Shown: piece by piece, positions 12,244 through 32,322 of the stretch
Layout: each line of letters opens with the position of its first letter
Numbering within the stretch: the stretch's first letter is position 1
From: Escherichia phage kaaroe
Strand: one strand, 5' to 3'
Sequence record: MN850574.1
DNA: 64,000 nucleotides
The notes under the pieces: model-generated
Told to the model about the DNA's origin: nothing
What the model saw: only the letters and a program-made list of their open reading frames with translations
Database searches by the model: none
Translations under genes and position numbers: made by a program

Positions 12244-12834
12244 ATGTCTAATCTCTTTAACTATGCTAACCCTAGCAACTGGCAGATCAATATTCCAGAT
12301 GGACAGCTAACAAAAGGCTTTACTTTAAATGCTCAAGGTGTTACACTTCCTGCTATAACCATTCCACCGACTAAGCAAGTTGCTGGTCAATATGGTTTGG
12401 CGGTCGCTGATTATCCGTCTAGTCATGTGGAGTTTGACCCGTTGGTAGTCCGGTTTATTGTCGATGAGCATTTGGAAAGCTATCTAAACCTTTACACATG
12501 GATGCTTTCTATAGTAGACTACAATAACGGTAACTCCACTGCGTGGAAGGATTCAATGCCGGAAGCCGTTCAAGTTCACATGATGGACAACGAACGACGT
12601 AACATTGTGTGCACTTTTAACTTTTATGGTTGTTGGTGTTCACAATTGGGGGAACTTGAGTTAACATACACCGATGATATGCATGAATCTCTGGTGTGTA
12701 CTGCAATTCTTCCCTTTAAAACAATGAGCATTGAACGTGATGGTCAACTGATCGTTCCTCGCCCAGCAATTCAGGCGGCGGATCGTCAGCGGGTGGAAGG
12801 TATTAAAGCTATGCACCCTGCTTTTAGAAAGTAA
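12244..12834 (+). CDS. 3: tail completion / sheath stabiliser protein gp3 (by synteny)
   Basis: 196 aa between gp2 and gp1; no strong motif recalled, positional call. Confidence 0.55.
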   Translation: MSNLFNYANPSNWQINIPDGQLTKGFTLNAQGVTLPAITIPPTKQVAGQYGLAVADYPSSHVEFDPLVVRFIVDEHLESYLNLYTWMLSIVDYNNGNSTAWKDSMPEAVQVHMMDNERRNIVCTFNFYGCWCSQLGELELTYTDDMHESLVCTAILPFKTMSIERDGQLIVPRPAIQAADRQRVEGIKAMHPAFRK

Positions 12835-12849
12835 TAAGAGGCTTATATA

Positions 12850-13506
12850 ATGAAACTGATTGCACTTTGTGGTAAAAAGCGAGTAGGAAAAGACACTGCC
12901 GCGTTAATAATTGATGGACATAGTTATCAACTGGCAGCACCGATCAAAGAAATCTTATGCGAATGTCAACCAGACTTAGGTCTGACTTATCTTGACTTTG
13001 ATGGGTTAGGGCGTGACAGAGAAGCCGATCTAGGTATTGATACATATACCGCGCATAAGTGGTTTATTCAGTGTCTGCTTATGCTAGATTCGAAGTATGG
13101 CGGTAGTTCCTTTACTTGTGATCGTCTGGCTGAGATTTACAAGGTTGTTAATGAGATCGGAGAAAAACATAATAACGTCTGGTCTATTCGTCTCATGTTA
13201 ACCACTCTCGGTACTGATATAATGGTTAACTTGATCAATCCGCTTTATTGGTGTAATCTCTTTGTGGATGAGTTTATGAAGCGCAAAAATGAAGAAGGGT
13301 ATTTTGTAGTGGTTGATGTGCGTCAGCCTATTGAAATTGCTCTCATGCGTGCTATGGGTGCTAAGGTGTTGCATATTCAGCGTGATACTGGTATTGTATC
13401 TACTCACTCCACCGAAAAAGGAATTTTGCCTATTGACGGTGAAACCATTATCATAAATAATGGTACATTAGAAGAATTTGAAAGCGCGATTCTCGCGAAC
13501 ATTTAA
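12850..13506 (+). CDS. 1: deoxynucleoside monophosphate kinase gp1
   Basis: 218 aa; P-loop GKKRVGKDT; LGTD..VN and RAMGAKVLH regions match remembered T4 gp1. Confidence 0.85.
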   Translation: MKLIALCGKKRVGKDTAALIIDGHSYQLAAPIKEILCECQPDLGLTYLDFDGLGRDREADLGIDTYTAHKWFIQCLLMLDSKYGGSSFTCDRLAEIYKVVNEIGEKHNNVWSIRLMLTTLGTDIMVNLINPLYWCNLFVDEFMKRKNEEGYFVVVDVRQPIEIALMRAMGAKVLHIQRDTGIVSTHSTEKGILPIDGETIIINNGTLEEFESAILANI

Positions 13507-13538: not shown

Positions 13539-13799
13539 ATGTCCAATCAGCATGAACAAATGATTAATGTCCTGAAAGTACGTCTGTTTGACACTCAAGA
13601 AAAGGCCGCATTCTTAGAAGGCCAACTGAAAGATCGTGAGCGTGTATTGATGGAACTGGTACGCATTCTGGGTATTCAGCCAGACGAAAACGGCACTGTT
13701 TCCCTTGATGCTATTGTCGAAGAAGTGAAAGCACTTCTCCCTAAAGACGAAGCAGCGGAAGACGCAGAAGAGGAAGTAGAACTGATCACGGAGGCTTGA
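13539..13799 (+). CDS. 57A: tail fibre assembly chaperone gp57A
   Basis: ATG at 13539 with AGGAG RBS (track ORF begins at GTG 13533); RLFDTQEK and acidic C-terminus resemble T4 gp57A. Confidence 0.7.
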   Translation: MSNQHEQMINVLKVRLFDTQEKAAFLEGQLKDRERVLMELVRILGIQPDENGTVSLDAIVEEVKALLPKDEAAEDAEEEVELITEA

Positions 13800-13801
13800 T
13801 T

Positions 13802-14266
13802 ATGACCCCGTTTAGAGAATCCGTTAAAGGTACATATGCGGCGGTTAAATTCACTGAGGATACACTAGACCGCATTGAAAAATTGCAGGAGTTCTACGAT
13901 CTGCCTAATGCCGTTCCTCGTGATAAACTGCATAGCACTATCTTATATTCTCGTGTCTATGTTCCGTTTATACCAGAAGAGGGTGAAAAGTTCTTAGGCT
14001 CTCTATGCCATCTGAAAGTGTTTGAAACTCAATCCGGTACTAATGCGCTTGTGCTGGCATTTGAAAGCGACTACATGCAATTCAGACACGATATCGGCAC
14101 TGCTTTAGGTGCGACGTGGGATTATCCTGAATATGTACCGCATATCACGCTTTCTTATGATGTTGGTGCGCGTAAATTTGGCACTGACCTAGAGTTCGAT
14201 TTAGAGATTGTCCGATCTCATGAGTATGTCGAAGATCTAGACCTGGAGTGGACGACCAAACTGTAA
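13802..14266 (+). CDS. 57B: 2H-phosphoesterase-fold protein, 57B/Acb1-like (anti-CBASS cyclic-oligonucleotide phosphodiesterase candidate)
   Basis: Two H-x-T/S motifs (KLHSTILYS and PHITLSY); position immediately after 57A as T4 gene 57B. Confidence 0.6.
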   Translation: MTPFRESVKGTYAAVKFTEDTLDRIEKLQEFYDLPNAVPRDKLHSTILYSRVYVPFIPEEGEKFLGSLCHLKVFETQSGTNALVLAFESDYMQFRHDIGTALGATWDYPEYVPHITLSYDVGARKFGTDLEFDLEIVRSHEYVEDLDLEWTTKL

Positions 14267-14273
14267 TTTTATA

Positions 14274-14304
14274 CCCCGAAAATTTTTCGGGGTTTTTTGT
14301 TTTT
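14274..14304 (+). terminator. intrinsic terminator
   Basis: ccccgaaaa-t-ttttcgggg hairpin then TTTTTTGTTTTT. Confidence 0.7.
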
Positions 14305-14309
14305 ATGTG

Positions 14310-14338
14310 TTGACAACCATAAACGACTATAGCATAAT
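14310..14338 (+). promoter_or_regulatory. early promoter TTGACA-17-CATAAT
   Basis: -35 at 14310-14315, -10 at 14333-14338, conserved leader CATCGAAACGAAACAC, RBS AGGAGAATCAAAAATG. Confidence 0.6.
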
Positions 14339-14376
14339 GCACACATCGAAACGAAACACACTTAGGAGAATCAAAA

Positions 14377-14754
14377 ATGATGATGATGTTTAAAGATAAA
14401 TTCGAATGTCACTACACCCGTAACTTTGACTTAGTATCCCGCTACTACATTCATAAAGAAACTGGCACGCAAGTAGTTCTTGAATCTCACAGCGAAGTAG
14501 GATTCGATTCAACAAAAGTAGCAATTAGTGCTCGCTTCTGGGATAACGGCAAATTTGCTTATATCGCTTGGAACGACGACGAAAATGTAATTACAGTAGC
14601 TTTCGGTGATGACTACTACACTAAAAAGACTTTCGATAGCAAGCCATCAAATGAATACCTGAAAGCGTATGTGCAGCACATGTTCCAACGTGTTCTGACC
14701 GGAATGGAAATCAATGTCATGAAAGACATTGTAGACGAAGTAAAATATTCTTAA
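14377..14754 (+). CDS. hypothetical early protein (125 aa)
   Basis: ORF directly behind promoter with strong RBS. Confidence 0.6.
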   Translation: MMMMFKDKFECHYTRNFDLVSRYYIHKETGTQVVLESHSEVGFDSTKVAISARFWDNGKFAYIAWNDDENVITVAFGDDYYTKKTFDSKPSNEYLKAYVQHMFQRVLTGMEINVMKDIVDEVKYS

Positions 14755-14987: not shown

Positions 14988-15191
14988 ATGGAATTGGATA
15001 TGGTTAAAGCAAAATTTATGGGTAAGGATAAGAGCGGTAAAACATTTGTTATTAATAGAACATTGTTTCGCTCTGACCTTAAGTGGGTAACACAACAATT
15101 TGCGGAAGTCAACGAGGCAGTTGTGACATGCTTCGTTGATGATAAAAAAGTTTTTGAAATTGATCGTCGTGGGGTGTCTAATGATCACTAA
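14988..15191 (+). CDS. hypothetical protein (67 aa)
   Basis: ORF with GGTGA RBS. Confidence 0.5.
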   Translation: MELDMVKAKFMGKDKSGKTFVINRTLFRSDLKWVTQQFAEVNEAVVTCFVDDKKVFEIDRRGVSNDH

Positions 15192-16248: not shown

Positions 16249-16277
16249 AGCCACTCTTCGGAGTGGCTTTTTTATTG
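16249..16277 (+). terminator. intrinsic terminator (UUCG tetraloop)
   Basis: agccactc-ttcg-gagtggct hairpin followed by TTTTTTATT. Confidence 0.7.
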
Positions 16278-16301
16278 CCTAAAATTTTTTTAAAAAAGTT
16301 G

Positions 16302-16330
16302 TTGACACCAGATCCGGCCTATAGCATAAT
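16302..16330 (+). promoter_or_regulatory. early promoter TTGACA-17-CATAAT (PeSL-like)
   Basis: -35 16302-16307, -10 16325-16330; downstream leader ACACCCATCGAAACGAAACAC. Confidence 0.65.
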
Positions 16331-16376
16331 ACACCCATCGAAACGAAACACACTTTCTTAAACGGAGAATCAAATT

Positions 16377-16562
16377 ATGGCACGTCGCATCACTAAAGCA
16401 CTGAAAGCAGTAAGCAAAGAAAACGTAGTAGCTATTCTGGTAATCTGGGGTTATAACGAAGAATCCGCTAAACAGAAAGTTGAAGCAGGGTTTGAACTGG
16501 CAGTAAAAGCAATGCCGAATGATGACTCTGTAGGACTGGCAAACTATATTGCATATTTCTGA
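16377..16562 (+). CDS. hypothetical early protein (61 aa)
   Basis: ORF behind promoter; codon usage biased to ctg/cgt/gaa/aaa. Confidence 0.6.
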   Translation: MARRITKALKAVSKENVVAILVIWGYNEESAKQKVEAGFELAVKAMPNDDSVGLANYIAYF

Positions 16563-17066: not shown

Positions 17067-17255
17067 ATGGAAGACCAAATTGAACAATTACGCGAATCCG
17101 CTAAAGAGCATGGTATGAGCGAAGGATTTGTTGAATGGTTTATCTCTAAAAAGGTTGATTCCTGCGGGTGCTTTAACTTCATTACTATGTCCATTATGTG
17201 GGAGGGTTGGAAAGGTGCTGTAGAAACTGCCTTAAAAATTTTGAAAAAAGACTAA
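17067..17255 (+). CDS. hypothetical protein (62 aa)
   Basis: ORF with GAGGTGA RBS. Confidence 0.5.
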   Translation: MEDQIEQLRESAKEHGMSEGFVEWFISKKVDSCGCFNFITMSIMWEGWKGAVETALKILKKD

Positions 17256-17263
17256 AAAAGTTG

Positions 17264-17292
17264 TTGACACGCGATAGGGTGTATAGCATAAT
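17264..17292 (+). promoter_or_regulatory. early promoter TTGACA-17-CATAAT with IR GGGTGTAT-AGCATA-ATACACCC
   Basis: -35 17264-17269, -10 17287-17292; perfect 8-bp inverted repeat overlapping -10. Confidence 0.65.
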
Positions 17293-17334
17293 ACACCCAT
17301 CGAAACGAAACACGAACTACTAAGGAGTATCAAA

Positions 17335-17661
17335 ATGAAACCAGTATCTGTTAAAGTTATCTTCTCTGAATCTTCTGTATTCGCTAACGCAAACGAAGTA
17401 TTCCACTTCGAAGACTTCGAGCGTAAAGCACAGGACGCGGCAGCAAAAGCCTATGAAAGCGAATATGACAAAACTCAAATCGAGGTTACTTTCGAAAACG
17501 GCACTACTTACGCTTGCCGCCTTGACCTGGGTGATCGTCTGTCTGGCTTCCGTCACCATGTAGAGAAGACAATCGCTTTCTCTAAAACCGAAAAAGGAAA
17601 ACACTACTTTTCTGTTTTCGGTACTGAAAATCTGGATTTCTTGAAAACTGTTTCTTTCTAA
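17335..17661 (+). CDS. hypothetical abundant early protein (108 aa)
   Basis: ORF behind promoter; strongly biased codon usage (ttc, ctg, cgt, ggt, aac) suggesting high expression. Confidence 0.65.
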   Translation: MKPVSVKVIFSESSVFANANEVFHFEDFERKAQDAAAKAYESEYDKTQIEVTFENGTTYACRLDLGDRLSGFRHHVEKTIAFSKTEKGKHYFSVFGTENLDFLKTVSF

Positions 17662-28208: not shown

Positions 28209-28489
28209 AAGACACAAACGAATTTAACGGTATTAAGGTAAGCCCGAATTTTATTGTTCCATCACTGGTGACTAAGCTGAATGGTCATATGGTCGCTTTG
28301 TCTTCCACACCGCCAGAATCAGGAAAGTTTATCACTATCGTAGTTTATGCGGGGCAAATTTTCTCTCATGATTGCTGCATGAAAAATGGTCAGTTGATGG
28401 TTGCAAATTATGACTATGGAGACCTTGAATGGGAAGTTTTAGATCTGGCTAAAAGTGCTGAAATTCTGGGCTATATTCGATTAGTTTAA
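28205..28489 (+). CDS. hypothetical protein (94 aa)
   Basis: ORF overlapping upstream stop. Confidence 0.5.
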   Translation: MKDTNEFNGIKVSPNFIVPSLVTKLNGHMVALSSTPPESGKFITIVVYAGQIFSHDCCMKNGQLMVANYDYGDLEWEVLDLAKSAEILGYIRLV

Positions 28490-28506
28490 AAATTTCTTAG
28501 AAAGTG

Positions 28507-28535
28507 TTGACAGCGATCCGGTGTTATTGCATAAT
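28507..28535 (+). promoter_or_regulatory. early promoter TTGACA-17-CATAAT (PeSL-like)
   Basis: -35 28507-28512, -10 28530-28535, leader ACACCCATCGAAACGAGATACAC. Confidence 0.65.
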
Positions 28536-28576
28536 ACACCCATCGAAACGAGATACACTTTCTAGGAGAATCAAAA

Positions 28577-28798
28577 ATGGCAACTGTTAAAATTATCAAA
28601 TCTTCCGCTGGTTTCGGTTTCATGCGTGGCGCTAAGTACCCGATGATTATTGAAAACGTTGCCATCGAAGATGGTATGGCTAAAGTAACCAGCCGTCAAT
28701 TGTTCGAAGCGGGTGTTAAAACTGCTGAATCATGGGCGCTTCGCTATCCTAACAAAACATGGTCTTTCTTCCTGGATGGTGAAGCAGAGGTCATCTAA
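28577..28798 (+). CDS. hypothetical abundant early protein (73 aa), KIEIID-family relative
   Basis: VKIIKSSAGFGFMRGAKYPMIIENV resembles 30924/31140 paralogs; biased codon usage. Confidence 0.6.
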   Translation: MATVKIIKSSAGFGFMRGAKYPMIIENVAIEDGMAKVTSRQLFEAGVKTAESWALRYPNKTWSFFLDGEAEVI

Positions 28799-31735: not shown

Positions 31736-31955
31736 CAGGGTATTCATTGTCCTGCTGGATTCGGAAAACTATCCAGAACTCTCTAAAACGCGTTTTCCGT
31801 GCGTTGTTGAAGCACGCAAGGCATATGCACCAGATAAACAGTTTATAGTGTTAGCGAGCGAAATAGAGCGGTTAGGGGCGATTCCTAAACATGATGAATA
31901 TGTGTTTTGTAAGGCGTTCTCTGTGCCTCATTTTGGTGTAGAGTTAATTCACTAA
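31701..31955 (+). CDS. hypothetical protein (84 aa)
   Basis: ATG at 31701, overlaps upstream 3' end. Confidence 0.5.
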   Translation: MKSKTGFYNQCNRVFIVLLDSENYPELSKTRFPCVVEARKAYAPDKQFIVLASEIERLGAIPKHDEYVFCKAFSVPHFGVELIH

Positions 31956-31972
31956 AATCATAAAAAAAGTTG

Positions 31973-32001
31973 TTGACAGGGGATCGGTGATCCCCTATAC
32001 T
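31973..32001 (+). promoter_or_regulatory. early promoter with embedded inverted repeat (PeSL-like)
   Basis: TTGACA 31973-31978, -10 TATACT 31996-32001, IR GGGGATC-GGT-GATCCCC. Confidence 0.65.
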
Positions 32002-32043
32002 ACACACATCAAAACGAAACACACTTTCTTAAGGAGAATCAAA

Positions 32044-32322
32044 ATGAGCAACCTGTCTTTCGCTAAAGTAGAAATTTCTAAAACTCGCGGTGGCTTTAAA
32101 ATCAAAACTTCCAACATCACTTCCTGTCGTGGTTGCGTCCGGTTTGCGTTCGACTTGGCAGCGAAGCTGGGTATTAAAACCTTTACCGTTGAGAGCGGAT
32201 CTACCTGGACCACTCTGATTGTTACTGCCGCTTGGATCAATGGCGAGTATGTAGAAAAAGCATACTTTGACATTTTCTATGACTACGAAGAAAAATGCTT
32301 TTATGCACTGCAAGACATGTAA
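32044..32322 (+). CDS. hypothetical abundant early protein (92 aa)
   Basis: ATG behind promoter (track ORF begins 31987); biased codon usage. Confidence 0.6.
   Translation: MSNLSFAKVEISKTRGGFKIKTSNITSCRGCVRFAFDLAAKLGIKTFTVESGSTWTTLIVTAAWINGEYVEKAYFDIFYDYEEKCFYALQDM

Follow-up and report, generated by a model that had tools for sequence, protein, structure and literature searches.

Gene 57B of an RB49-like coliphage is predicted to encode an Acb1-family anti-CBASS phosphodiesterase

Gene order and expression signals at the 57B locus

The window analyzed here is a stretch of 64,000 nucleotides from Escherichia phage kaaroe (sequence record MN850574.1), which is an RB49-like coliphage of the genus Krischvirus. 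Gene 57B closes a block of genes in the order 3-1-57A-57B, all encoded on the forward strand (Table 1). An earlier note, made from the letters alone, had reported an open reading frame directly after 57A at positions 13802 to 14266 with two H-x-T/S motifs, HSTILYS and HITLSY, and both the frame and the motifs are present exactly as described. The coding sequence comprises 465 nt, begins with ATG at 13802 and ends with TAA at 14264-14266. In a mechanically generated list of reading frames, the frame opens two codons ahead of this ATG, at TTG 13796. We preferred the ATG because GGAGG stands ahead of it, at 13791-13795, and because Krischvirus records carry the same CDS, with exactly these 465 nt annotated in RB49 and four other records. 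The GGAGG site is itself annotated as a ribosome-binding site in Ec_Makalu_002 and _003. HSTILYS spans residues 44-50, with the H44 codon at 13931-13933, HITLSY spans residues 114-119, with the H114 codon at 14141-14143, and these two sites hold the only H-x-[ST] tripeptides of the protein.

Table 1. Position, strand and basis of assignment of features at and around gene 57B in the window.
Feature	Position	Strand	Basis
Gene 3, tail tube terminator	12244-12834	+	Pfam and PHROG matches
Gene 1, dNMP kinase	12850-13506	+	Pfam and PHROG matches
Gene 57A, tail-fiber chaperone, directly upstream of acb1	13539-13799	+	Pfam GP57, PHROG 1002, RB49 annotation
Shine-Dalgarno GGAGG, 6 nt ahead of the ATG, within the end of 57A	13791-13795	+	Sequence read
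acb1 (predicted) / gene 57B, CDS, 154 aa + TAA	13802-14266	+	ORF read, profile and homologue matches
First putative catalytic motif H44-S45-T46, opens HSTILYS	13931-13939	+	Aligns with T4 Acb1 H44/T46
Second putative catalytic motif H114-I115-T116, opens HITLSY	14141-14149	+	Aligns with T4 Acb1 H113/T115
C-terminal segment with E144 and W150	14231-14263	+	Aligned to T4 E141, W147
Intrinsic terminator, 9-bp stem ACCCCGAAA/TTTCGGGGT followed by T-run	14273-14303	+	Terminator scan

The 57A homologue scored 27.5 bits with Pfam GP57 (cut-off 27) and matched PHROG 1002, labeled 'tail fiber chaperone', with an E value of 5.3e-26. The order 3-1-57A-57B was common to the window, T4, RB49 and phages of Vibrio, Klebsiella, Acinetobacter and Aeromonas and is thus conserved across Straboviridae genera. 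In T4-like phages a position beside 57A supports an assignment to Acb1 without strictly defining it, and 57B occupies this position here.

The gap between the stop codon of 57A and the ATG of acb1 measures 2 nt and holds no terminator. A strong terminator hairpin (14273-14293) closes the 3-1-57A-57B block, and four Krischvirus records annotate a terminator in this position. Because the gap is so short and the only terminator comes after 57B, co-transcription of 57A and 57B is likely. No exact T4-type late promoter TATAAATA was found upstream of the block; the window contains three exact copies, all of them at other places. Within the block, a promoter scan returned sigma-70-like matches of weak consensus only.

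Family assignment and predicted fold

The 57B protein matched the Pfam family PF23474, 'Anti-CBASS protein Acb1', with an E value of 1.5e-51 (174.4 bits; cut-off 27), and the match placed residues 9-152 of the protein on profile positions 1-143 of 144. When PDB chains were searched, the sole match was Acb1 of Erwinia phage FBB1 (7T26/7T27; E 1.8e-43, residues 10-153), to which the protein is 53% identical over 142 residues. Identity to T4 gp57B (NP_049750.1) was 48% over the full length. The profile and T4 matches bear out the 57B homology that the earlier note had proposed from its motifs, and its statement that T4 gene 57B is Acb1 was correct, as the T4 protein, the founding member of the family, was identified as the cGAMP-degrading Acb1 via activity-guided fractionation (Hobbs et al. 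2022, PMC9117128). No NCBIfam model matched the protein.

Two short H-x-T/S motifs by themselves could occur by chance, which is not so for the full-length match to PF23474 or the match to the FBB1 structure. The 57B protein is predicted to have the compact 2H-phosphoesterase fold seen in solved Acb1. This assignment is based on sequence homology to a solved structure because a single-sequence AlphaFold2 model was too poor to be used (pLDDT 37.5, pTM 0.36). The closest solved relative is the FBB1 enzyme, available as an apo structure (7T26) and with 3'3'-cGAMP (7T27). Its crystal construct starts at G8, and the nine N-terminal residues of the window protein fall outside the match. By every feature that can be examined in silico, 57B is classed as a member of the Acb1 family.

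Catalytic and substrate-contacting residues

In T4 Acb1, H44, T46, H113 and T115 form the catalytic HxT/HxT tetrad, while Y12, W74, F107 and W147 stack on the nucleobases and E141 makes an adenine-specific contact (PMC9117128). A Glu contacts adenine N6 in both the T4 and the FBB1 enzyme, and T4 W147 is the Trp of the lid (PMC9117128). These positions were examined in an alignment of eight sequences, namely the window protein, RB49, T4, FBB1 and homologues from an Acinetobacter, an Aeromonas, a Vibrio and a Klebsiella phage. H44 and H114 of the window protein aligned with the catalytic histidines of T4 (H44 and H113), and both threonines of the tetrad were kept as T46 and T116 (T4: T46 and T115), so that the alignment with T4 Acb1 which the earlier note had put forward as a check supports its reading. 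The tetrad was invariant in all eight aligned homologues, which represent seven Straboviridae lineages plus FBB1. At the aromatic positions, Y12 of T4 corresponds to Y12, W74 to F74, F107 to Y108 and W147 to W150, and the adenine-reading E141 corresponds to E144. Thus, all nine residues named in the T4 work (PMC9117128) are either identical in the window protein or replaced aromatic for aromatic.

Compared with T4 Acb1, which belongs to the same PF23474 family and holds the same place after 57A in 3-1-57A-57B, the window protein is of similar length (154 versus 152 aa) and shares the tetrad, Y12, the adenine-contacting Glu and the lid Trp, but differs in having F74/Y108 in place of W74/F107, all of them aromatic. 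Both swapped residues, F74 and Y108, are those of the crystallized FBB1 enzyme, and the two proteins are therefore predicted to share the same substrate pocket. Two differences in length were seen. Ahead of the C-terminal lid, the window protein carries an insertion of two residues relative to T4 and FBB1, the placement of which, around residues 129-134, is uncertain. Further, one extra residue is present near position 81 relative to T4 alone.

A more divergent homologue was noted in the Slopekvirus Klebsiella phage vB_KpnM_05F (2459-3082 of its 57B locus). This protein is longer, at 207 aa, being extended at its C-terminus by about 55 aa, and a Lys is aligned at the position of the lid Trp (T4 W147). 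Judged by this alignment, the Slopekvirus protein may represent a form of Acb1 in which the lid differs.

Relatives and selection

The 2.5-kb region around 57B showed 99.4% identity to an assembly of Krischvirus RB49 and 96-99% to 57 RB49-like coliphages. The window protein is 100% identical to RB49 gp57B (AAQ15381.1), with 98.7% identity at the DNA level, and no difference at the protein level, beyond labels, sets RB49 gp57B and other Krischvirus copies apart from it. The RB49 protein was deposited in 2003 as a 'conserved hypothetical protein'. Gene 57B of the window is therefore already known, being an RB49-type copy of a described family. Using tblastn, 57B homologues were found in 1,475 phage records, 55 of them at ≥99% identity and most others below 60%. 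The Acb1 family was called widespread in 2022 on the basis of 273 phage members that a BLASTp search with T4 Acb1 had returned (PMC9117128), and given its identity to T4 Acb1 the window protein would be expected among them.

Comparison of the window with five other Krischvirus 57B copies gave 21 variable nucleotide sites, 20 of which were synonymous. The one amino acid change is D129N, in vB_EcoM-G2494. A random single-base change in the 57B frame would be synonymous in about 23% of cases, which gives a probability of roughly 2e-12 for at least 20 synonymous sites among 21; this crude value takes no account of shared ancestry or mutation bias, but its direction is clear. The 57B protein is clearly under purifying selection.

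T4-related phages degrade CBASS signals, and the screen of 57 phage lysates in the work on T4 Acb1 took in vB_EcoM-G2494, a Krischvirus listed there as RB49 (PMC9117128). Our literature search returned no assay of a Krischvirus Acb1, and nothing pairing Acb1 with RB49 or Krischvirus with CBASS. Krischvirus phages are reported to have unmodified cytosine DNA, unlike T4 as compared here (PMC6563267).

Proposed function of 57B

Acb1 is a metal-independent enzyme that cleaves 3' of adenosine in two steps (PMC9117128). The T4 enzyme cuts 3'3'-cGAMP, cUA, cAAA and cAAG, while cGG and cA4 are left uncut, and nine out of nine further homologues that were cloned cleaved 3'3'-cGAMP and cAAA (PMC9117128). 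T4 without acb1 suffers a more than 300-fold loss of replication on CBASS hosts, and the gene is non-essential when CBASS is absent (PMC9117128).

We consider it very probable that 57B encodes a functional Acb1, that is, a metal-independent 2H phosphodiesterase linearizing CBASS signals. The intact reading frame, the family match, the aligned residues, the gene order and the purifying selection all argue for this function, and the expression signals give additional backing, with a good ribosome-binding site ahead of acb1 and a terminator directly after it. Enzymatic activity, substrate range and protection in vivo are inferred by analogy to T4, FBB1 and the nine other homologues (PMC9117128). 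A counter-defense role of 57B in the window phage is a strong inference from homology.

According to the proposed mechanism, the phage would make the small 2H-phosphoesterase Acb1 during infection. The enzyme would bind cyclic di- and trinucleotides with at least one adenosine (3'3'-cGAMP, cUA, cAAA and cAAG) in a pocket lined by the aromatic residues Y12, F74, Y108 and W150, with E144 reading the adenine. H44, T46, H114 and T116 would cut the phosphodiester bond 3' of adenosine in a metal-free reaction proceeding via a 2',3'-cyclic phosphate intermediate. The linear products would be unable to activate CBASS effectors, leaving Cap5, Cap4 and CapV inactive, and the infected cell would not undergo abortive infection, allowing the phage to replicate.

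A modified form of this proposal holds that the Krischvirus Acb1 has a substrate range unlike that of T4 and is possibly also the lineage's only countermeasure against cyclic oligonucleotides. An altered range is conceivable because two residues are inserted ahead of the lid and the pocket has F74 and Y108. That Acb1 might act alone is suggested by the syntenic vs/regB region of the window, in which no T4-type Acb2 homologue could be detected. Acb2 is the T4 sponge that is sensed by the decoy-nucleotide system Panoptes (PMC12657230, PMC12657218), and phage MM02 has both Acb1 and Acb2 (PMC12657230). A search of the window in six frames using tblastn and phmmer found no homologue of T4 vs.4 (Acb2), the best E value being 1.7. 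The syntenic region is present at 20340-24955 with vs.8, vs.6, nrdC.11, regB, vs.1, vs and tk.4, the last at 24488-24955 with 44% identity, and three small ORFs in the expected place of vs.3 to vs.5 had no Pfam match. If the modified form were true, these phages could evade CBASS solely through degradation, with no need of the Acb2 sponge sensed by Panoptes in T4. We regard it as unlikely.

Another explanation is that 57B is an enzyme of the Acb1 fold with a different main target, such as the cA3 of type III CRISPR, 2'3'-c-di-AMP from Panoptes-type systems or some signal left intact by T4 Acb1, and that anti-CBASS activity is not its main role in the window phage. Identity to T4 Acb1 is just 48%, and the insertion before the lid would fit such a shift. 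Further, T4 Acb1 itself cuts cAAA (PMC9117128) and 2'3'-c-di-AMP (PMC12657230) in vitro, and the family is therefore not strictly limited to CBASS signals. However, the adenine-reading Glu and all four stacking aromatics are kept, all the diverse homologues that were assayed cleaved 3'3'-cGAMP and cAAA, and the closest solved relative, at 53% identity, was crystallized with 3'3'-cGAMP. A different main target is thus improbable in our estimate, and a role against CBASS signals remains the preferred reading.

An even smaller probability is assigned to a general RNA-repair or RNA-end 2H enzyme, i.e. a LigT-like 2'-5' RNA ligase or a 2',3'-cyclic phosphodiesterase with no specific role against CBASS. 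LigT/2'-5' RNA ligases and other 2H phosphoesterases carry the same superfamily signature of two H-x-T/S motifs, and the 57B protein matches PHROG 755, labeled 'RNA ligase', with an E value of 9.8e-55. Because PHROG 755 carries this label, it has been copied into many public records in GenBank and RefSeq; the gene is annotated there as 'RNA ligase', 'hypothetical protein' or 'conserved hypothetical protein', not as Acb1. Weak Pfam matches to 2_5_RNA_ligase2 (PF13563; E 0.0011, 19.4 bits) and LigT_PEase (PF02834; E 0.057, 14.1 bits) point in the same direction. Both are partial and lie below their cut-offs of 27 and 23.3 bits, respectively, whereas the Acb1 model matches over the full length, and by these thresholds the protein is not placed in the LigT/2'-5' RNA ligase family. 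The substrate-contacting residues specific to Acb1 are kept in the window protein, and to our knowledge such stacking and lid residues do not characterize the PF13563 and PF02834 families. We found no experiment supporting the name 'RNA ligase', which mirrors a fold common to the superfamily. In addition, the T4 orthologue was discovered as a cGAMP degrader and is dispensable without CBASS.

Finally, an inactive or decaying remnant that is retained for its place in a conserved operon is extremely improbable, since, although acb1 is non-essential in T4 without CBASS and natural loss-of-function alleles occur in some T4-like phages such as Bas43, which has an acb1 nonsense mutation (PMC12657230), the frame here is intact and of full length with all catalytic and binding residues present, 20 of 21 variable sites in Krischvirus are synonymous, and a protein at least 99% identical is found in 55 phage records.

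Implications for annotation and host range

The better label for the gene would be acb1 (anti-CBASS 2H phosphodiesterase), as most Krischvirus records still read 'RNA ligase' or 'hypothetical protein'. Beyond correct annotation, the finding matters little. With regard to phage therapy and host-range prediction, the finding suggests an ability of RB49-like phages to overcome CBASS systems whose signals are cyclic di- or trinucleotides containing adenosine. If T4 Acb1 is taken as the guide, systems using cGG, cUU or 3'2'-cGAMP would not be overcome. Carriage of acb1 may also be a liability in some hosts because overexpressed T4 Acb1 can trigger Panoptes (PMC12657230, PMC12657218). The two Panoptes studies conflict on this gene in T4, with deletion of acb1 leaving defense unchanged in one and knockdown having a partial effect in the other (PMC12657230, PMC12657218).

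Neighboring genes and a repeated promoter-leader cassette

The first ORF after acb1 (14377-14754, forward strand, 125 aa) stands in the place of T4 ipI. It matched PHROG 15253, a family with a function-less label, at an E value of 1.8e-87, and gave a sub-threshold match to T4 Gp30.7 (E 0.004, 17.3 bits versus a cut-off of 27). A homologue of T4 ipI was not found in the window by tblastn and phmmer in six frames. The downstream neighbor of 57B in the window is an ORFan behind a promoter cassette of the promoter-early stem-loop (PeSL) type, while in T4 it is ipI.

A Dmd homologue lies 0.7 kb downstream of acb1 at 14988-15191 on the forward strand (Pfam PF17587, E 7.6e-16), and dmd is found in the RB49 annotation. 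Dmd is the T4 antitoxin against the toxins RnlA and LsoA. The window phage would therefore have two counter-defense genes close together, with two small ORFs between them.

In the vs/regB region, three adjacent ORFs of 64, 86 and about 111 aa at 22184-23016 (forward strand) share a C-[SA]-H-L-x-G/Y-x-x-W motif and look like paralogues. They belong to no Pfam family and correspond to RB49 ORF095c-097c, which are annotated as hypothetical.

The cassette that follows 57B is present in at least five copies in the window. It comprises a near-consensus early promoter (GTTGACA, 17 nt, TATAGCATAAT), the conserved leader CATCGAAACGAAACACAC, and AGGAGAATCAAAATG. Copies lie on the forward strand at 14262-14380 and at about 16254-16380, 17216-17340, 28459-28585 and 31925-32050. 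They can be aligned with each other, and an 18-mer of the cassette occurs five times in the window compared with 0.05 occurrences expected. Ahead of the copy that follows 57B lies the terminator hairpin (14273-14293). PeSL cassettes of RB49 and phi1 have been described as drivers of ORFan shuffling (PMC2839356), and the repeated cassette of the window fits this description. Given this resemblance, acb1 would be situated at the edge of a conserved block, adjoining a hyperplastic region.

A 41-bp promoter-leader piece at 14329-14369 showed 92.7% identity to intergenic DNA of distant Cronobacter, Klebsiella and Enterobacter phages. We rejected these phages as DNA relatives of 57B, as the match consists of the promoter-leader piece and not of 57B. 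Their genomes measure 175-181 kb, the matching DNA is unannotated, and the genes flanking it have no DNA match. This distribution suggests that the promoter-leader cassette is shared or exchanged between genera.
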